Source: Candidatus Aminicenantes bacterium (GTDB lineage Bacteria; Acidobacteriota; Aminicenantia; Aminicenantales; CALLJL01). From it: a stretch of 64,000 nucleotides of DNA. A program made the position numbers and the translations under genes. The DNA lies in NCBI GenBank assembly GCA_037441905.1, contig JBBIRF010000006.1, positions 18,675 to 82,674 of the forward strand, in the 5' to 3' direction. Within the stretch, counting starts at the first letter, position 1. Each line of letters opens with the position of its first letter. Shown here piece by piece: positions 1 through 24,380 of this stretch. Under the pieces are notes generated by a model. The model saw only the letters and a list, made by a program, of their open reading frames with translations, made no database searches and was not told where the DNA came from.

Positions 1-1706
1 AAGGAAAGCTCCTTCCGGAGGAAGCCAAAAACCAAGGTTACGCCCAGGTTGGCCGGCAGCCCAAGAACTCCGCTGACCAATGGCGCAAGACCACGATTGA
101 TTAAGAAATCAACCCGGCTGAGCTGAAGGAGGCTCAAAACCAGGCTGCCAGCAATCAAAATCGGCCAGGCAAACTGGACAAAAGAGCGCAGCTGCCAGCC
201 GACCTTGGAAAAGATAATCCGGACTGAAGGGAGTTTGAGCGAGGGAATCTCGAGGATAAGTCCCGGGGAGGGGTCCTTGAAGAAAAAGGCTAAAAACCGG
301 CCGACCAATCCCACCACGGCTATCTGGAAAAAATAGAAGCCCATCGCCCACCAGGGACCAAGAAAGAAGGCAATAATGGCCAGGATAACGGTTGTCCGGG
401 CCGAACAGGGAATAAAAGGAATCAATAAGGAGGTCAGGAAACGGTCCCGGGGCGACTCTAAGATTCTGGTGCTGACCACAGCCGGGACGTTGCAGCCGAA
501 CCCGAGGATAAAAGGCGCCACCGACTTTCCATGCAGGCCTATCCGGTGCATCAGGGCATCGAGAAGGAACCCGGCTCTGGCTAAATAGCCCAGGTCTTCG
601 AGAAAAGCCATCAGGAAAAGCAACGGCAGGAAATAGGGCAAAACAATAGCTACCCCGGCCCCGAGCCCCTGGGTCAAGCCGTCGGCCAGCGAGAGAACAA
701 TTCCAGGCAAAGCAAGGCTATTCAGCCAGGATTGAAGTTTTGCCCAGGGTTGGAGCAACAACTGCTCCAGCGGGTTGCCGATAAGAAAAATCAGGAAGAA
801 AAAAAGACAGAAAACCAGGAAAAGGATGGGATAACCAAGAAGCGGGTGCATCAGCAAGCTGTCTATTTTCTCTTCCCAGCTTACCTTCGAACCCCGCTCC
901 ACGCGGGCAACTGCCTCGAGAATCTTGAGCGCTAAGTGGTGTCTCTCGGCCGCCAAAACTTCGTATGCAGGCCGTTGCCGCTTGGCTTCTAATTGGCGGC
1001 GGGCCTCTTCCACCTTTTTTTTCAGCGGAAGGCTTATTTCCTCGAGAATTTCATGACAAAAGGTCTCGCCAGCTTCAATCAGTTTGACCGCAGTGAAACG
1101 GCGGTTAGCGACGATGCAGAAATTTTCGGGAAGCGAGGCGGCGAGCTCGGCCACTATTTTTTCAACGTCGGCCGTCCAGGATAGGGGCTTGGGGAGACAA
1201 TTAAGCTTCAGACATTCGGAGCAGCGCGAGAGAAGCTCCTTAACTCCCCTCCCCCGGTTGGCCACAGTAACCACCACCGGAATCCCTAAAACCTCCTCGA
1301 GCTTCCGGGCGTTGATTTTGATTCCCTTTTTTTCCGCCAGGTCTACCATATTCAGGACAAGCACTATCGGCCTCTCTAACTCCAACAATTCCAGGGTCAA
1401 CTCCAGGCTCCGACCTAATAAGGAAGAGTCAATGACATTGACAATAAGGTCGGGCGGCTCCTGGAAAAGATGGCCGAGGGCGGCTTTTTCGGCCGGGTCT
1501 GAAGGGTTCAACGAATAAGTGCCAGGGAGGTCGACTATCCGCCAAACCTGGCCGTTGACATAAACCTGACTATGGGTGTGGGTGACGGTTGTCCCGGGGA
1601 AGTTGGACGTCTGGGCTTTAGGTCCGGCAATGGCGTTAAAGAGAGTGCTTTTGCCGCTATTAGGCTGACCGATGAAGACGATAACCGGACCATCAGGCCT
1701 GGCCAT
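1..1706 (-). CDS. feoB: Ferrous iron transporter FeoB (3' end beyond window edge; absent from ORF track)
   Basis: Hand translation from ATG 1706: MARPDGPVIVFIGQPNSGKSTLFNAI (G1), SNFPGTT (G2), DLPGTYSL (G3), NMVD (G4). The last codons in the window read ...VTLVFGFLRKELS (FeoB membrane domain). Overlaps the feoA end. Confidence 0.95.
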   Translation of the reverse strand, partial: MARPDGPVIVFIGQPNSGKSTLFNAIAGPKAQTSNFPGTTVTHTHSQVYVNGQVWRIVDLPGTYSLNPSDPAEKAALGHLFQEPPDLIVNVIDSSLLGRSLELTLELLELERPIVLVLNMVDLAEKKGIKINARKLEEVLGIPVVVTVANRGRGVKELLSRCSECLKLNCLPKPLSWTADVEKIVAELAASLPENFCIVANRRFTAVKLIEAGETFCHEILEEISLPLKKKVEEARRQLEAKRQRPAYEVLAAERHHLALKILEAVARVERGSKVSWEEKIDSLLMHPLLGYPILFLVFCLFFFLIFLIGNPLEQLLLQPWAKLQSWLNSLALPGIVLSLADGLTQGLGAGVAIVLPYFLPLLFLMAFLEDLGYLARAGFLLDALMHRIGLHGKSVAPFILGFGCNVPAVVSTRILESPRDRFLTSLLIPFIPCSARTTVILAIIAFFLGPWWAMGFYFFQIAVVGLVGRFLAFFFKDPSPGLILEIPSLKLPSVRIIFSKVGWQLRSFVQFAWPILIAGSLVLSLLQLSRVDFLINRGLAPLVSGVLGLPANLGVTLVFGFLRKELS

Positions 1707-2167: not shown

Positions 2168-4264
2168 ATGAAAAAGGGACGGTATTTGGTCATCTCATGG
2201 ATTCTAATCATTATCCTTTCCCTTTCGCTTAAAGCCGACGAAGGCCTGTGGCCTTTCAACCAGGTGCCGGTTGACTTGATCAAGAAAAAATACGGCGTTA
2301 CTCTGACCCAGGAATGGCTTGACCACCTCCGCCTGGCCTCGATTCGCTTCGGCGGAGCTTCGGCTTCCTTTGTCTCGCCTGACGGTCTGATTCTGACCAA
2401 CCATCATGTCGGCCAGCGGGCTATCCAGAACTTGAGCACACCCGAACGGGACTTGATGAAAACAGGGTTCTATGCCCGGACGAAAGAGGAAGAGCTGAAA
2501 TGCCCCGGCGTCGAGCTCTGGGTTCTTGAGGGAATCGAGGACGTAACCTCCCGCGTGCTTTCGGCTGAAAAGCCGGGGATGACGGCGGCTGAGGCGGCCG
2601 CAGCCCGCGAAAAGGTCATCGCCCAAATCGAAAAAGAAACGGCGGATAAGGCCGGGCTCAAAGCTTCTGTAGTTACGCTCTACTCCGGCGGTATGTATCA
2701 CCTGTATAAATACAAGGTTTATACTGATGTCAGGCTTGTTTTTGCGCCCGAGTTTGCCATCGCCTTTTTTGGCGGCGACCCGGACAATTTCACTTACCCG
2801 CGTTATGACCTTGACATCACTTTTTTCCGGGCCTATGAAAATGGCCAGCCCGCCAAGACACCCCACTATCTTCGCTGGAGCCAGAAAGGGGTCAAAGAAG
2901 GAGACGTGGTTTTCGTCTCTGGCAACCCCGGCTCGACCGGAAGGCTTCTTACTCTGGCTCAGCTGGAGTTCCTGCGCGACGTTAGCTATCCTTTCACTAT
3001 TGCCAATTATCAAAGAAGAAGAGCTCTCCTCCAGGCGTACAGCCAAAAAGGCGAAGAACAGGCCCGCATCGCCTTGAATACGCTTTTCGGCATCGAGAAC
3101 AGTCTTAAGGCCGTCACCGGGTATAATTCCGGGCTGCTCGACCCGAAAGTCATGGAAAAGAAGGCTAAGGAAGAGGCTGAGTTGAAGCGGGCGGTGGCCG
3201 CCGACCCGAATTTAGCTAAGGAGTTTGGCCGCGCCTGGGACGAAATCGCCGCCGCCCAGAAGGTTTATGCCGAAATATTCAAGCCACTGGCCTTTTTCGA
3301 GCGAGCCCAGGGTTTCAATTCAGTTTATTTTACCCTCGCCCGTAACCTTATCCGCTTAGCCGAGGAGCGCCTGAAACCAAACGAGCTTCGGTTGCGCGAA
3401 TATCGCGATTCTAACCTGCCCTCGGTCGAGCGGTCGATTCTCTCGCCCGCGCCGATATATGATGACTTCGAGATAGTGAAGCTTGCCGATTCTCTCTCGC
3501 AGCTTAAAGAAGAGCTGCCCGGTATGTGGGAAGTACGCTGGCTGCTTGGCGCTAAACCCGCTGATGAGCTTGCCCGGGAACTCGTCGCTCGAACCAAACT
3601 CAAAGACATGGAAGTACGGAAAAAGCTTCTTCAGGCGAAGCCCGAGGAGATATACCAGGTCGACGACGCCATGATTAAGCTCGCCCTCCTCGTCGACCCG
3701 GTCTCGAGGGGGTTAAGAGCCCGGTATGAAAAAGAGGTGGAATCTGTTGAAAACACTAACGGCGGTCTTATCGCCCGGGCTATCTTTAAACTCAAGGGGA
3801 CCTCGGTCCCTCCGGACGCAACCTCAACCTTACGGTTAAGCTTCGGGGTGGTCAAAAGTTACCGCGAAAACGGCCGCTGGATACCTTTCCAGACTAATTT
3901 TGCCGGCCTGTATGAACGAGCCAGACAGTTCGGTTTCAAGTTTCCGTATGAGCTGCCCGCGAGTTTCGTCGAGAAAAAGAACGCCCTTAACCTGAAGGTG
4001 CCGTTGAACTTCGTCGCCACGGCCGACTCAATCGGCGGAAACTCCGGCTCACCCGTGGTCAATGTTAAAGGAGAGCTGGTGGGTGTTCTTTTTGACGGCA
4101 ACATCCAATCCCTGCCGAACCGGTTCGTTTACACCGAGGAGCAGGCACGTTCGGTCATGGTGCATAGCCAGGGAATTATCGAGGCTCTGCTCAAGGTATA
4201 CGGCGCCAAGGAACTTGTGGCCGAACTCCTCGGAAAAATGGGGACAACTATGTGCGCCTCATAA
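2168..4264 (+). CDS. S46 family dipeptidyl peptidase, DPP7-type
   Basis: Signal peptide then DEGLWPFN, TNHHV (His) and GGNSGSPV (Ser). Gly lies 18 residues after the catalytic Ser (LFDGN), the DPP7-type position; DPP11 has Arg there. Confidence 0.93.
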   Translation: MKKGRYLVISWILIIILSLSLKADEGLWPFNQVPVDLIKKKYGVTLTQEWLDHLRLASIRFGGASASFVSPDGLILTNHHVGQRAIQNLSTPERDLMKTGFYARTKEEELKCPGVELWVLEGIEDVTSRVLSAEKPGMTAAEAAAAREKVIAQIEKETADKAGLKASVVTLYSGGMYHLYKYKVYTDVRLVFAPEFAIAFFGGDPDNFTYPRYDLDITFFRAYENGQPAKTPHYLRWSQKGVKEGDVVFVSGNPGSTGRLLTLAQLEFLRDVSYPFTIANYQRRRALLQAYSQKGEEQARIALNTLFGIENSLKAVTGYNSGLLDPKVMEKKAKEEAELKRAVAADPNLAKEFGRAWDEIAAAQKVYAEIFKPLAFFERAQGFNSVYFTLARNLIRLAEERLKPNELRLREYRDSNLPSVERSILSPAPIYDDFEIVKLADSLSQLKEELPGMWEVRWLLGAKPADELARELVARTKLKDMEVRKKLLQAKPEEIYQVDDAMIKLALLVDPVSRGLRARYEKEVESVENTNGGLIARAIFKLKGTSVPPDATSTLRLSFGVVKSYRENGRWIPFQTNFAGLYERARQFGFKFPYELPASFVEKKNALNLKVPLNFVATADSIGGNSGSPVVNVKGELVGVLFDGNIQSLPNRFVYTEEQARSVMVHSQGIIEALLKVYGAKELVAELLGKMGTTMCAS

Positions 4265-4281
4265 TTTATATTTCCTATTTC
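4236..4281 (+). repeat. Dispersed bipartite repeat, copy A (with 15-nt insertion)
   Basis: AAATGGGGACA + ACTATGTGCGCCTCA + TAATT + TATATTTCCTATTTT; overlaps the last codons and stop of the S46 gene. Confidence 0.7.
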
Positions 4282-4357
4282 TTAATCATCGCGCGCCGGT
4301 TATACTTCTATTAAGATCGGGACACGGTATCTTGCTAAAATGGCGCTATGTAGGCAA

Positions 4358-4388
4358 AAATCGGGACATGAACTATATTTCCTATTTT
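4358..4388 (+). repeat. Dispersed bipartite repeat, copy B
   Basis: AAATCGGGACA-TGAAC-TATATTTCCTATTTT. Confidence 0.85.
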
Positions 4389-5055
4389 TTGATAGCCAAA
4401 CAGGCAGCTCGTTTTTTGCGCCAAAACCCTGGCGGAAAAACTGGCCACTGAAAATTTAACTGTAATTTATTTTTTATATTTTTTAAATTTTATATCTAAA
4501 AAGGAAATTTTTGCCTGAAGAAACAAAGGCCCTTATTGCCTGTTTTTCTTGCCAGGTGCGCCCTTTTCTTCAAGGTCGAACGCGATTCCCCCCCTTCCTG
4601 TCGTGTCTTAAGTTTGCTGCATTATCTTATTTTAGATTTCAGACCACAACATTCCCTGTCGAATGATGTTAAACGGTTTATCCTATCGCGGCACGCTACT
4701 CACCTCCCCTTTATTTCTTTCCTTAGCCAATATTTGTTATGTTCCATGGATAAGTTTTTTCGTGATAAAAAATCAGCCATTGAATGCTTATCCTTCCGTC
4801 GCTCCAGATTGCTACTTAAGTATTGGCTTTTTGCCGATTTGACCCTATGAGTTCTTATTATTGAATATTACCGACGAAATAAACGCGGTAAGCTGGCTGC
4901 CCAGAATAGGCGGAGAAAGAAAACTATATCTTAAACAGTTATCGCACCACGGACATAGTGCTCAGTTACCAAAGCTCAGGGACTGCTCTGAAGATTGAGA
5001 TATTAAGATATAGAATCAGGATTCCCCTGAACCTGCTCGCCTGAGAAAACGTCAA

Positions 5056-5086
5056 AAAATAGGAAATATAAATTATGTCCTCATTT
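5056..5086 (-). repeat. Dispersed bipartite repeat, copy C (inverted)
   Basis: Reverse complement reads AAATGAGGACA-TAATT-TATATTTCCTATTTT; its last 22 nt are a perfect inverted match to 4260-4281. Confidence 0.85.
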
Positions 5087-5108
5087 AATCTAAAATAGGG
5101 GCAAGTAG

Positions 5109-5139
5109 AAAATAGGAAATATAGGTCATGTCCCTATTT
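5109..5139 (-). repeat. Dispersed bipartite repeat, copy D (inverted)
   Basis: Reverse complement reads AAATAGGGACA-TGACC-TATATTTCCTATTTT; self-complementary AAATAGG...CCTATTT ends. Confidence 0.85.
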
Positions 5140-5177
5140 AATTGACTTATCCAGGGTATTCTGTTAAATAATAAGAA

Positions 5178-7787
5178 ATGTATAAATGGGTTTTAAACAA
5201 GCTCTTCGGCACCAAGAACGAGCGCGACCTTAAGAAACTCCGTCCTTACGTTGCCGCCATCAACGAGCTTGAGCCCTCCGTCCGAAAGCTCACTGATGCC
5301 CAGCTCCAGGCTAAAACAGCCGAGTTTAAACAAAGGTTAGCTCAGGGGGCTTCGCTCGAAGACATCCTGATTGAGAGTTTTGCCGTTGTCCGCGAAGTAG
5401 CCCGCCGGACTATCAACATGCGACATTTCGACGTCCAGCTCATGGGCGGCATCGTCCTCCACCAAGGGAAAATTGCCGAGATGAAGACGGGTGAAGGGAA
5501 AACCCTGGTGGCCACGCTTCCTGCCTACCTTAACGCCCTCGAGGGCAAAGGCGTCCACATCGTTACGGTCAATGATTATCTGGCCAAAAGAGACGCCGAA
5601 TGGATGGGCCCAATCTATAAATTCCTGGGCCTGAGCGTTGGCGTCATCCAGCATGAAATGCCCGACGCCGACCGCAAGAAGGCCTATCTCAGCGACATCA
5701 CTTACGGGACGAACAACGAATTCGGTTTCGACTATCTGCGGGATAACATGAAGTTCAGGCTCGAAGACATGGTCCAGAGAGGCCACCATTATGCCATCGT
5801 CGACGAAGTCGACAGCATCCTGATTGACGAAGCCAGGACGCCGCTGATTATTTCCGGCCCGACCGAGGAATCAACCGACCTCTATTTCCGGATCGATAAC
5901 TTTGTCCGCCGACTCCAGAAAGACCGCCATTTCAAAGTGGACGAGAAAACCAGGACCGTCGCCCTACTCGAAGAAGGCGTGGCCGAGGCCGAAAAGTATT
6001 TCCGTGTTCCCAACCTCTACGACCTGGCATACATGGACCTTGTTCACCATATTAACCAGGCTCTCAAAGCTCATCATCTGTTTAAACGGGACGTCGATTA
6101 TATGGTCAAAGACGGCAAGGTCATCATCGTCGACGAGTTCACTGGCCGGTTAATGCCCGGCCGCCGTTATAGCGACGGCCTCCATCAGGCCCTCGAGGCC
6201 AAAGAAAGAGTGAGGGTAGAACAGGAATACCAGACCTTAGCCTCGGTCACTTTTCAGAACTATTTCCGGATGTATAAAAAGCTCGCCGGGATGACCGGTA
6301 CCGCGGCCACTGAAGCCGCCGAATTTATGGCCATCTACAACCTCGACGTCGTCGAAATTCCGACGAATAAACCGCTTATCCGTTATGAATATCCTGATGT
6401 CGTCTACCGAACGGCCAAAGAAAAATGGGAGGCTGTGGTCAACGAAATCATTCAGGCGCATGAAAAAGGTCGCCCGGCCCTTGTAGGCACGGTCTCGATC
6501 GAAAAATCAGAACATCTGAGCTCCCTCCTGCGCAAGCGAGGCATTAAACATGTTGTTCTTAACGCCAAGTACCACGAACAAGAGGCCAGAATCATCGCCC
6601 AGGCAGGACGGGTCGGCGCCGTAACCATCGCCACCAACATGGCGGGACGAGGTGTTGACATCCTCCTGGGTGGTAACCCAGAATTCATGGCCAAAGAAAA
6701 CCTGCGGAAAGCCGGCATCGAACCGGAAAAAGCCTCCCCCGAGCAGTGGGAAAAAGCTCTCGAGGAAGCCCGTCGAATTACCGAAGAAGAACACAAAAAG
6801 GTAGTTTCGCTCGATGGCCTTTATGTTATCGGGACAGAACGGCACGAGAGCCGTCGCATCGACAACCAGCTCCGCGGCCGGGCTGGCCGCCAGGGCGACC
6901 CGGGCGCCTCGAAATTTTTCCTGTCTCTCGAGGACGACTTGATGCGCATCTTCGGCAGCGACCGGCTGTCGGGGCTGATGGCCCGCATCGGGATGAAGGA
7001 AGGCGTTCCGATAGAGCATAAAATGGTCTCGAAGGCTATCGAGCGGGCGCAAAAACAGGTCGAAGCCCAAAACTTCTCCATCCGCAAGCACCTGCTGGAA
7101 TACGACGACGTGATGAACAAGCAGCGGGAGACTATCTACCGGATGCGCCGCGAAATTCTTGAAGGCAAGGATATGCGCTCTTATTTTGTCGAAGTGGTGG
7201 AAAACATCCTCGACTGGCTGCTTGATACCCATGCCAACAAAGATCGGCATCCCGAAGACTGGGACCGGGAAGCCTTGCGTAATGCTATCGGGTCGCAGTT
7301 TGGCCTGGACATCGAAACCCTCGGCATCAACTGGGACGAGGTAAATTACGAGGAGCTCCGCGAGAAGATCTTGATAGCCCTGATGGCAATTTATGAAGAA
7401 AAAGAGCGCCTGCTGACCCCCGCCCGAATGCGCGAGTTCGAGAGAATAATCCTCCTCCAGGTAATAGATAGTCAGTGGAAGGACCATCTTCTAGGAATGG
7501 ATTATCTGCGGGAAGGAATCGGGCTGAGGGGTTATGGTCAGCGTGACCCGTTGGTCGAGTACAAGAAGGAAAGCTTCGAAATGTTCCAGGCCATGTTAGA
7601 CCGGATAGAGGAAGAGGCTGTCCGTTATATCTTCCTCTTTCAACCGGTCATCGTCGAGCGAGAGGAAGCTCCGAGCCGACCGACCCGCCGGCTCTTCTAC
7701 GGCGCGCCGGAACAGGCCCTCGAAAGAGCGCCCTCTTTCCGCCGCGAAGCCCGGGCTGTCATTCCCAAGAAAAGGAAAAGAAGATAA
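5178..7787 (+). CDS. secA: Preprotein translocase ATPase SecA
   Basis: [57 protein letters not shown]; no C-terminal SEC-C motif. Confidence 0.99.
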
Positions 7788-7795
7788 TAAGATAA

Positions 7796-9277
<1,482 letters not shown>

Positions 9278-9293
9278 ATAGCGAGGGAGAAAA

Positions 9294-9722
9294 ATGAAAA
9301 AAAGCTGGCGTTGTTTCATCTGTCAGGACATTCATGTCGGCAATAAACCACCCGAAATTTGCCCGACTTGCGGCGCCAGAAACGCCTACGTGGAAGTATC
9401 CACGACCGAAGCCGTAGCCATTGCCCAAGCTTTTCCCCGGCAAGTAAACCAGGAAACTTTCTTGCGGACTGTCGAGGCGCTCGCCGCCGCGAACGAATTC
9501 CGCTTGAACCCCGACCGAGATAAAGTCAGCCTTTTACTCGAAGGTATTTTTAACAATGAAAAAAACCACGGGTACAAGTTCTGTCCGTGCCGCCTCCAGA
9601 CCAAAGATTTCCTCGAAGACATGAAGCTTATCTGTCCCTGCAATTTTTTAGTCCATGAAACCTACCGGGGTCGGCCTGACGGGGAATGCTGGTGCGGCCT
9701 GTTTCAAAGGAGGCAAGCATGA
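9294..9722 (+). CDS. Rubredoxin-like domain fused to ferredoxin-thioredoxin reductase catalytic subunit
   Basis: N-terminal CFIC-x12-CPTC; C-terminal CPCR, CPC and CWCGLF motifs of the FTR catalytic fold. Confidence 0.88.
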   Translation: MKKSWRCFICQDIHVGNKPPEICPTCGARNAYVEVSTTEAVAIAQAFPRQVNQETFLRTVEALAAANEFRLNPDRDKVSLLLEGIFNNEKNHGYKFCPCRLQTKDFLEDMKLICPCNFLVHETYRGRPDGECWCGLFQRRQA

Positions 9723-10015
9723 AAAAAATTATCATGTTTTATGCTCGGGAGTGTCCGCATTGTCGCGTCATGCTGCCGGTGGTTGACCGTCTCGAAAAGG
9801 AAACTGGCATCACCTTTGAGCGGCTGGAGGTCTGGCATGACGAGAAAAACGCTGACTTGATGCGCTCCTGGCGGCACGTCCTCGCTCCAGCCTGCGGGGG
9901 ACAGTTAAGGACACCAACTTTCTTTGAACCAGAAAGCCAAGCGGTGCTTTGCGGCGAAGTCCCTTATGAAAAACTAAAAGATTGGGCGGAAAAGGCTCTC
10001 AGCCTTAAAGCTTAA
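9719..10015 (+). CDS. Thioredoxin/glutaredoxin-like protein
   Basis: Start moved to ATG 9719 (AGGAGG SD, ATGA overlap with the upstream stop); FYARECPHC active site, RTPTF cis-Pro loop. Confidence 0.88.
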   Translation: MKKIIMFYARECPHCRVMLPVVDRLEKETGITFERLEVWHDEKNADLMRSWRHVLAPACGGQLRTPTFFEPESQAVLCGEVPYEKLKDWAEKALSLKA

Positions 10016-13135: not shown

Positions 13136-14020
13136 TTAGCGAGGGCGACGACCTTTCTCCCTGGCTAACTCCCGCCGCAACAGCCGTCGCAAACCGGGTT
13201 TAAGATGGTAAGAATGTTCTTCATCGGGATAAAGCCCGGCCTTTACTTCGCGCGCATAGTTCAAGAAAGCTTCTCTGATGAGGGTGCCCAGCTCAGCATA
13301 TTTTTTAACAAACTTGGGCAAAGAGCCATCGGTTAAACCCAGCAGGTCATGAAAAACCAGCACTTGACCGTCGCAGAAACGGCCGGCGCCGATGCCGATC
13401 GTCGGGATGCTAAGTTCTTTCGTGATTACTTCAGCCAACTCCTCAGGGATGCATTCGAGAACCACTGAAAAAGCGCCGGCTCGCTCAAGCGCTTTAGCCT
13501 CTTCGAGAATTCTCCTGGCTTCTTGAATTTCTCCGCCACGCATCCGGTACTGTCCGAAACGATGGATTGACTGCGGGGTTAATCCCACGTGCCCCATCAC
13601 GGGAATTTCCGCCTCCACCAGGGCTTCGACGGTCCGCAGCCGGCGGGAGGAAGCGCCTTCTATTTTTACCGCCTTGGCGCCAGCTTCCTTGACGAAACGG
13701 GAAGCATTTCGAATCGTGTCCTCTTCGGAAAGATGAAAGGAAAAATAGGGCATGTCACCTACGACCAGGGCCCGGCGAACCGCTCTGGCCACAGCCCTGG
13801 TATGGTGCAGCATCTCTTCCATCGTTACGGGTAGAGTTGTTTCATAGCCAAGGACCACCATACCCAGGGAGTCTCCGACGAGGATAATATCCACGCCGGC
13901 CTCCTCGGCCAACCGTGCCCCGGGAAAATCATAGGCGGTAACCGCCACAATCTTTTCGCCCGAGGTTTTCTTAGCCTTTAGCCAGGGGATAGTTACAGGA
14001 GGGTTTGGCTCTTGAGACAT
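13136..14020 (-). CDS. panB: 3-methyl-2-oxobutanoate hydroxymethyltransferase
   Basis: TAYD, ILVGDSLGM, GDMP, VKIEG, MGHVGLTPQS, IGIGAG..CDGQVLV. Confidence 0.98.
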   Translation of the reverse strand: MSQEPNPPVTIPWLKAKKTSGEKIVAVTAYDFPGARLAEEAGVDIILVGDSLGMVVLGYETTLPVTMEEMLHHTRAVARAVRRALVVGDMPYFSFHLSEEDTIRNASRFVKEAGAKAVKIEGASSRRLRTVEALVEAEIPVMGHVGLTPQSIHRFGQYRMRGGEIQEARRILEEAKALERAGAFSVVLECIPEELAEVITKELSIPTIGIGAGRFCDGQVLVFHDLLGLTDGSLPKFVKKYAELGTLIREAFLNYAREVKAGLYPDEEHSYHLKPGLRRLLRRELAREKGRRPR

Positions 14021-23893: not shown

Positions 23894-23914
23894 ACCACCC
23901 CCAATAATAATAAA

Positions 23915-23945
23915 AAACCGGGACATGTTCTATATTTCCTATTTT
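23915..23945 (+). repeat. Dispersed bipartite repeat, copy E
   Basis: AAACCGGGACA-TGTTC-TATATTTCCTATTTT; same 15-bp right box as copies A-D, ~19 kb away. Confidence 0.85.
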
Positions 23946-23977
23946 TCTTGCCCTGGAAAGTAGGAACCCACAGATAG

Positions 23978-24010
23978 CTACACACCTATTTTTATCTACA
24001 CACCTATTTT
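23978..24010 (+). repeat. 15-bp direct repeat x2
   Basis: CTACACACCTATTTT at 23978 and 23996 (18-bp period); shares the CCTATTTT end with the bipartite repeat. Confidence 0.8.
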
Positions 24011-24171: not shown

Positions 24172-24200
24172 TTTACATCAATTGAGGAAGTTGGTATCAT
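24172..24200 (+). promoter_or_regulatory. Sigma70-type promoter of small CxxC ORF
   Basis: TTTACA-N17-TATCAT. Confidence 0.65.
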
Positions 24201-24224
24201 GCGAGCAAGATGATTAATTACATT

Positions 24225-24380
24225 ATGCTTTATAAAATTAGAAAAAAAGTTAAGAAGATTATTCAGGATAAAATCGAGGACGGCGAGCTGGCGACGACCG
24301 AAAAATCGTGCCTCGGCTGCCTGGCTGATGATATCAGCTGGGAAATTTATTACCTATTAAAAGAAAAAGAGGAAAAATAG
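24225..24380 (+). CDS. Small 51-aa protein with CxxC (below ORF-track cut-off)
   Basis: MLYKIRKKVKKIIQDKIEDGELATTEKSCLGCLADDISWEIYYLLKEKEEK*; has its own promoter; alternative in-frame ATG at 24210. Confidence 0.7.
   Translation: MLYKIRKKVKKIIQDKIEDGELATTEKSCLGCLADDISWEIYYLLKEKEEK

Follow-up and report, generated by a model that had tools for sequence, protein, structure and literature searches.

RAYT-like genes (RAYT, REP-associated tyrosine transposase; REP, repetitive extragenic palindrome) that are bounded not by REP hairpins but by long terminal inverted repeats have been described as TIRYTs, and the units they form as TIRtrons (Di Nocera, De Gregorio and Rocco 2013, BMC Genomics 14:522; PMC3733652). 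Many TIRYT inverted repeats carry the sequence GGGGWSAS, some of the repeat families are moderately abundant and occur as singles, dimers, and clusters, and one TIRYT group is specific to Acidobacteria, a phylum that now includes Aminicenantes (PMC3733652). In REP/REPIN-RAYT systems, the repeat units are palindromes with a GTAG tag, found as extragenic singlets, as hairpin-forming inverted doublets that recur as units (REPINs), and in clusters, and there is one tyrosine transposase gene, at a fixed place in the chromosome and with repeats on either side (Bertels and Rainey 2011, PMC3116915; PMC3337134). The IS200/IS605 elements, which likewise use a Y1/HUH enzyme (PF01797), have dissimilar ends with subterminal hairpins and a multi-copy transposase that travels with the element. 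Here we analyzed a stretch of 64,000 nucleotides from a Candidatus Aminicenantes bacterium (contig JBBIRF010000006.1, positions 18,675 to 82,674; hereafter the window), in which an earlier note, made from the sequence alone, had pointed out a bipartite repeat around a non-coding "island" between an S46 peptidase gene and secA. The repeat is a nearly invariant 36-bp sequence of many uncultured Aminicenantales that is tied to a TIRYT-type, RAYT-like tyrosine transposase. The family is new and its class is known; no new kind of system is revealed.

Copies B, C, D, and E (Table 1) were confirmed as full repeat units, together with several partial ones, at a frequency far above chance. A search with the right box TATATTTCCTATTTT, allowing up to two mismatches, gave seven matches in the window against 0.18 expected, a number reached in none of 100 shuffled sequences, and the bipartite pattern occurred six times against 0.61 expected. 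The weight-matrix scores of the four full copies were 50-55 bits; a weak match at 13739, within a gene, is probably due to chance. Copy A proved to be nonstandard: here a variant unit precedes a lone right box. The outer inverted repeat of 7 bp for which copy D had been called an imperfect palindrome is indeed there. The spacer between the two boxes had been described as variable and 5 nt long; it is actually 4 nt and fairly conserved across the family (AATC), and the unit also runs outward into an A-run. The outer boxes in the window are GGGACAT or GGGGACAA and agree with GGGGWSAS at 7 of 8 positions. The edges of the unit, which is about 33-36 bp long, are sharp: contigs from a sediment metagenome matched just 4357-4389 of copy B and 23913/14-23946 of copy E and then continued into unrelated flanks.

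Beyond the window, 174 exact-seeded copies gave the consensus AAAAA(A/C)T-GGGGACAC-AATC-TATATTTCCTATTTTT with random sequence on both flanks; consensus positions set by the search pattern carry no information, and four of them lie in the outer box GGGGACAC, which fits the GGGGWSAS of TIRtrons. The exact pattern was found in several species-level metagenome-assembled genomes (MAGs) of Aminicenantes/Acidobacteriota and in at least 120 metagenome stretches, which identifies the repeat, as had been proposed, as a dispersed, non-autonomous, intergenic family of uncultured Aminicenantales. A weight matrix run over 0.96 Mb of repeat loci returned about 370 matches at 12 bits or more, compared with one in shuffled sequence. 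In a sediment metagenome (X1) containing a strain that shares about 98% identity with the window, the summed contig depth rose from about 8 to 65-145 exactly across the repeat unit. About 16 contigs, each at the 6-8.5x depth of the window-like strain, bore the unit with unrelated flanks, and this strain therefore holds at least roughly 16 copies. A minor sub-family, ...ATGTAGGGCGTCCC, has both GTAG and CGTC strings, neither of which is present in the main consensus. We found no paper containing the sequence itself or reporting such repeats in Aminicenantes, and neither this 36-bp sequence nor the order Aminicenantales appears in PMC3733652; the earlier expectation of an undescribed class nevertheless has to be dropped, since the repeat matches the published TIRYT/TIRtron inverted repeats with GGGGWSAS. 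Unlike the published TIRtron repeats, it is nearly unchanged across many species and metagenomes. A higher conservation of the motif (92%) than of its flanks (79-86%) on motif-seeded loci was set aside, because the choice of loci biased it. One contig, L001, which is labelled as part of an 'uncultured Eubacteriales' MAG, has five copies near the consensus within 8 kb; the metagenome loci L092 and L127 are identical to it, and it may be a misbinned contig of Aminicenantes.

A scan for the HUH...Y signature across all open reading frames (ORFs) in all loci gave a single match, a minus-strand gene for a 220-aa protein (L039, 6144-6803). This protein matched Pfam Y1_Tnp PF01797 with an E-value of 4.4e-12, above the Pfam cut-off, and E. 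coli TnpA-REP (PDB 4ER8) with an E-value of 4e-5, and its family is large, with 576 clusters at E <=1e-30. Near-consensus copies of the repeat lie 2-3 nt past the stop codon and 83 bp ahead of the ATG, and beyond them there are a doublet and a further inverted copy. The identical protein was encoded on 14 contigs of different samples, in each case in the context DUF5916 - gene - Peptidase_M28 and with the same repeat copies; the arrangement in L142 is given in Table 1. An orthologous locus, L122, is without both the transposase gene and one repeat copy. Searches with tblastn also detected an N-terminally truncated homologue with 56% identity in MAG-75 (L004), whose stop codon falls within the variant unit of window copy A, here GGGGACAACTATGTGTGCTCC, and a C-terminal relic with 48% identity enclosed by a facing pair (L087). 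The repeat and the transposase gene, intact or decayed, thus lie physically together in three related lineages, and the repeat-flanked HUH gene that the earlier note had suggested looking for exists in related contigs; the window itself has no transposase by either regular-expression search or tblastn, as the note had said. Across about 1 Mb of repeat-bearing DNA, no further transposase-like or recurrent gene family was found by the repeats, just housekeeping genes, and long facing pairs (640-814 bp), which we considered as autonomous elements, only enclose ordinary small genes. A Y1/HUH gene between inverted, non-hairpin repeats, seen here in relatives only, is the arrangement of a TIRtron. 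Its single context on 14 contigs may correspond to the fixed gene of REPIN systems and differs from the travelling, multi-copy transposase of IS200/IS605, and the terminal inverted repeats differ from the dissimilar ends of those elements.

The arrangement of the copies was examined with the forward orientation defined as GGGGACAC -> TATATTTCC. Facing pairs (forward then inverted) were spaced 25-400 bp in 75 of 84 cases, back-to-back pairs were under 600 bp apart in just 1 of 39, and 27 of 86 tandem copies were at 100 bp or less. The gene-less copies are therefore single, dimeric, or clustered, as in TIRtrons. Whole doublets with their interiors form several sequence families, same-contig paralogues being 82-95% identical; these paralogous sub-families with 60-300-bp interiors have no counterpart in the TIRtron description, and in Pseudomonas fluorescens SBW25 REPINs the spacers, at 71-110 bp, are shorter and less varied (PMC3116915; PMC3337134). 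Almost all copies were intergenic, just 11 of about 300 lying within ORFs of at least 100 aa. The outer GGGG end had a median distance of 0.5-17 bp to gene ends or 56-131 bp to gene starts, and the inner side looked onto about 200 bp of non-coding DNA. Folded as single-stranded DNA, single units gave -0.5 to -3.8 kcal/mol, in five of six cases no better than shuffled sequences, and the consensus unit folded as RNA gave -3.9 kcal/mol (z about -1.3). This poor folding and the missing GTAG or CGTC tag in the main family separate the unit from a REP palindrome, as which it had first been read. Doublets of 132 and 192 bp, in contrast, formed long hairpins of -49.6 and -67.4 kcal/mol, compared with -24 and -41 kcal/mol in shuffles. 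Extragenic singlets, hairpin-forming doublets that recur as units, clusters, a patchy distribution among relatives, and A/T flanks on doublets (PMC3337134) are all shared with REPINs. At many element ends, the outermost 10-17 bp (the A-run plus GGGGACAC(CC)) is present in 2-4 tandem repeats, a feature that varies among orthologous loci (examples in Table 1); such duplicated outer half-sites and an apparent A-run insertion target further distinguish the family from described TIRtrons. On these grounds we file the family in the TIRYT repeat class, as one that works like a REPIN system without being REP.

Syntenic loci were retrieved by protein and are hence unbiased as to the motif; the SecA homologues put the window in Ca. 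Aminicenantales, and exact look-ups of SecA and of the last gene in the window gave no record. The closest relatives, L131 (SecA 95% identical) and L133 (91%), had no copies over 22.6 kb, and L135 (89%) had a shortened variant, GGTGACACAAAC-ATTTTT, between S46 and secA with the layout forward, forward ... inverted, as in the window. In the alignment with L131, the 663-bp interior is a diverged native spacer, homology returns exactly at the outer edge of copy D (5140), and copy B is a clean insertion of about 30 bp immediately past GGCAAAAA, without target duplication. The idea that the repeats are the ends of one lost element fails: the interior is the diverged native S46-secA spacer common to L131, which has no repeats, and the window copies went in separately at the two edges of this older spacer. 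L131 also supplies the empty-site alleles that the note had proposed to look for, lacking copy B and the unit at the S46 end. The island had no convincing ORF (at most 104 aa, unsupported), no similarity to the interior of any other element, and, like the rest of the window and 10 loci, no relevant match in Rfam at gathering and E-value thresholds. In the X1 contig, 4298-4373 is swapped for 18 nt (AAAAACCGGGACACAATT), and the lone outer half-site is consequently not there.

At the S46 end, the final 9-10 codons of the peptidase gene, with its stop, come from the variant unit. The L131 gene stops at ...ELQK* (TAG), where it has AAAAATAG and no GGGGACAACTATGT; in the window, AAAAAT continues into GGGGACAACTATGT at the place of this TAG, so the protein ends ...ELLGKMGTTMCAS*. 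Over 4223-4264, the ORF thus has a C-terminal extension of nine codons from mobile DNA, relatives ending in ...ELQK* or ...ELLK*. Elsewhere, comparison of the empty site in L128 with the filled one in L117 showed the A-rich heptamer CAGAAAC at the junction and on both sides of the element in the filled allele, and one orthologous site had a singlet in L015 and L046 and a full 282-bp doublet in L051. The outer A-run was already there in the empty allele in all three gain/loss comparisons. Like the family and its geometry, gain and loss of copies between relatives is shown by these data. The L128/L117 and L131 comparisons suggest insertion beside a short specific sequence with no obligatory target duplication, as in IS200/IS605. 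The S46-secA spacer turns over quickly, since L133 has a 328-aa SH3 + outer membrane protein (OMP) beta-barrel gene (8853-9839) in this slot and the others have 484-913 bp of unrelated spacer. The island was also considered as a pseudogene of the L133 gene; tblastn gave nothing.

Taking the above together, we think that the repeats are probably the terminal inverted repeats of a TIRtron, in which a TIRYT (RAYT-like HUH/Y1) gene is framed by inverted copies and gene-less units are mobilized. The enzyme, presumably encoded by one gene per genome, would recognize the 33-36-nt unit on single-stranded DNA and would move or copy units that carry no gene; these take the form of singlets, tandem copies, and facing doublets, the last of which could fold as long hairpins. 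New copies would insert in intergenic DNA, with an A-rich run (AAAA[A/C][T/A]) directly on their 5' side that becomes the outer edge of the unit, and insertion at this position would account for the frequent overlap of copies with TAA stop codons. We infer catalysis by the Y1 enzyme, the single-strand mechanism, and, from three comparisons only, the A-run target rule. Side effects on the host are, in the window, the nine-codon S46 extension and the copies directly against the promoters of secA and of a gene for a PQQ/BamB-like protein (PQQ gene).

Several points weigh against this interpretation. The transposase link and the copy number come from relatives and a metagenome, not from the window's own genome, and the L039 protein scored 67.8 bits against NCBIfam REP_Tyr_transpos ('REP-associated tyrosine transposase'), under the cut-off of 80. 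The repeat loci were gathered by the motif itself, which biases copy densities and conservation on them upward. Gain and loss were compared between diverged genomes and are not always polarizable, the evidence being sequence comparison. One filled site with a 7-8-bp direct repeat (CAGAAAC) fits DDE-type cut-and-paste better than Y1. Finally, the conservation of copy E where the neighboring protein is just 71% identical points to host-level constraint and not to purely selfish DNA.

A more elaborate account, which we regard as unlikely, would take the unit as a non-palindromic bipartite site read by an Aminicenantales-wide TIRYT in a way undescribed for HUH transposases and inserted precisely after gene-end A-runs; copy E, and perhaps copy D, would have been adopted by the host as promoter-proximal or terminator modules, and the tandem outer half-sites would be footprints of abortive nick-and-extend events. 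The direct repeat in the L117/L128 pair bears on a different origin, namely that the repeats are ordinary MITEs (miniature inverted-repeat transposable elements), deletion derivatives of a DDE-type insertion sequence with 36-bp terminal inverted repeats that moves by cut-and-paste with target-site duplication. The layout of two inverted repeats around 60-300 bp and the recurrence of complete units as paralogues would also suit such elements, to which we nonetheless give a low probability: no DDE transposase or other recurrent gene family occurred in about 1 Mb of repeat-bearing DNA, the sole transposase-like genes found were Y1/HUH genes directly against the repeats, copy B has no duplication and the paralogues no consistent one, and the abundant singlets and outer half-site duplications are atypical of MITEs.

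In a further alternative, the repeat is a host cis-regulatory site under selection, serving a conserved DNA-binding protein as its operator or acting as a terminator/insulator module, and its spread is secondary. Copy E is kept at the same place in L137, with 27 of 30 motif positions and the short leader that precedes the PQQ start codon, between genomes that share 90% identity in RarA, 71% in the PQQ protein, and 77-83% in coding DNA; homology ends at the inner edge of the copy, and the following approximately 220 bp are unalignable. Copy E was missing from L139 and L140. Some copies are thus old and seem constrained or homogenized, others decay at the neutral rate, for instance one at another locus in L046 (24 of 36 positions kept), and copy E appears to have been kept by selection or homogenization. 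A regulatory role would also agree with copy D adjoining the -35-like hexamer of secA, with the variant motif that L135 has in a matching layout at the S46-secA locus, and with the A-run/T-run flanks and doublet folds of -50 to -67 kcal/mol, which look terminator-like; similar A/T flanks of REPINs have been interpreted as co-option for attenuation (PMC3337134). On the other hand, distance and orientation to promoters are not fixed, about half of the copies have a gene end outside and many lie between converging genes, every copy is missing at the same loci in close relatives, some orthologous copies decay neutrally, as in L046, and a single unit is a poor hairpin; a search for RNA-seq runs gave none. 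We therefore consider a primarily regulatory site improbable. Invertons, i.e., inverted repeats at which a site-specific recombinase flips an enclosed promoter segment, would explain conserved inverted repeats around 50-300-bp intergenic segments at many loci, but they are effectively refuted, because interiors were never inverted in about 25 independent orthologous comparisons, and the density of copies is much too high, many are located between gene ends, and singlets are common. Three further candidates were rejected: a sigma-54/sigma-70 promoter (GG...TATA recalls the -24/-12 geometry, yet lacks the invariant GC and any conserved -35, and stands at no set distance from genes), a leaderless mini-ORF (ATGTCC...; length and frame unconserved, often antisense to gene ends), and a dif/Xer site (too many copies, mismatched arms).

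The link between repeat and enzyme suggests what may drive at least one among the numerous intergenic repeat families of Aminicenantales, and the repeat and the enzyme form a defined substrate-enzyme pair for studying how TIRYTs recognize non-hairpin ends. The repeats also matter for annotation, as they change gene ends (nine codons added to the peptidase), make false start codons (the ATG of copy E), and sit against promoters. At the PQQ gene, the start of the longest ORF (ATG 23926) falls within copy E, an annotation trap that arises because the repeat holds CATG; the true start is likely ATG 23896 (MALKKRRW..., a signal-peptide-like N-terminus), behind GGGGGTGG.

Table 1. Positions of repeat units, associated features, and example loci. 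Window positions count from the first nucleotide of the 64,000-nucleotide stretch.
Sequence	Feature	Position	Strand	Basis
Window	Variant repeat unit ("copy A") AAAAATGGGGACAACTATGTGCGCCTCATAA = AAAAAT-GGGGACAAC-TATGTGCGCCTCA-TAA	4236..4264	+	sequence; S46 gene end + stop
Window	Lone right box TATATTTCCTATTTC, 1 mismatch	4267..4281	+	box search, weight matrix
Window	Lone outer (left) half-site AAGATCGGGACACGG	4313..4327	+	sequence; missing from near-identical X1 strain
Window	Copy B, full unit, outer end towards S46 gene	4356..4390	+	box search, bipartite pattern, weight matrix
Window	"Island" interior, 663 bp, diverged ancestral S46-secA spacer	4391..5053	.	partial homology to L131 spacer
Window	Copy C, full unit, inverted	5054..5089	-	box search, bipartite pattern, weight matrix
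Window	Copy D, full unit; outer end against TTGACT -35-like hexamer of secA (ATG 5178)	5107..5142	-	box search, weight matrix
Window	Copy E, singlet; outer end 19 bp upstream of minus-strand PQQ/BamB-like gene start	23912..23947	+	weight matrix
L142	Forward copies	5883-5918, 6666-6701		
L142	Transposase gene	6001-6663		
L142	Inverted copies	6882-6917, 6979-7014		
L083	Tandem outer half-sites	5600-5660		
L102	Tandem outer half-sites	6790-6815		
L020	Tandem outer half-sites	600-640		
L015	Tandem outer half-sites	5020-5045		

Some smaller features were observed near the repeats. Small gene pairs (one gene of about 105 aa, the other of about 95-134 aa and containing ...EIEIERAINFGGFDYIKEV...) lie between repeat copies in L077 (142-546) and L081 (206-830) and look like a toxin-antitoxin or nucleotidyltransferase-type pair. 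Just inside copy E, at 23982-24010, CTACACACCTATTTT occurs twice in tandem and has ...ACAC and CCTATTTT in common with the unit's two boxes; the pair may be a collapsed variant unit, comparable to the shortened GACACAAACATTTTT form in L135. Further along, 24172-24380 contains a small gene for a CxxC microprotein with a TTTACA...TATCAT promoter, about 88% conserved at the nucleotide level in L137 (5197-5367). It was called at 56-58 aa in L137, L140, and L141 and looks like a real gene.

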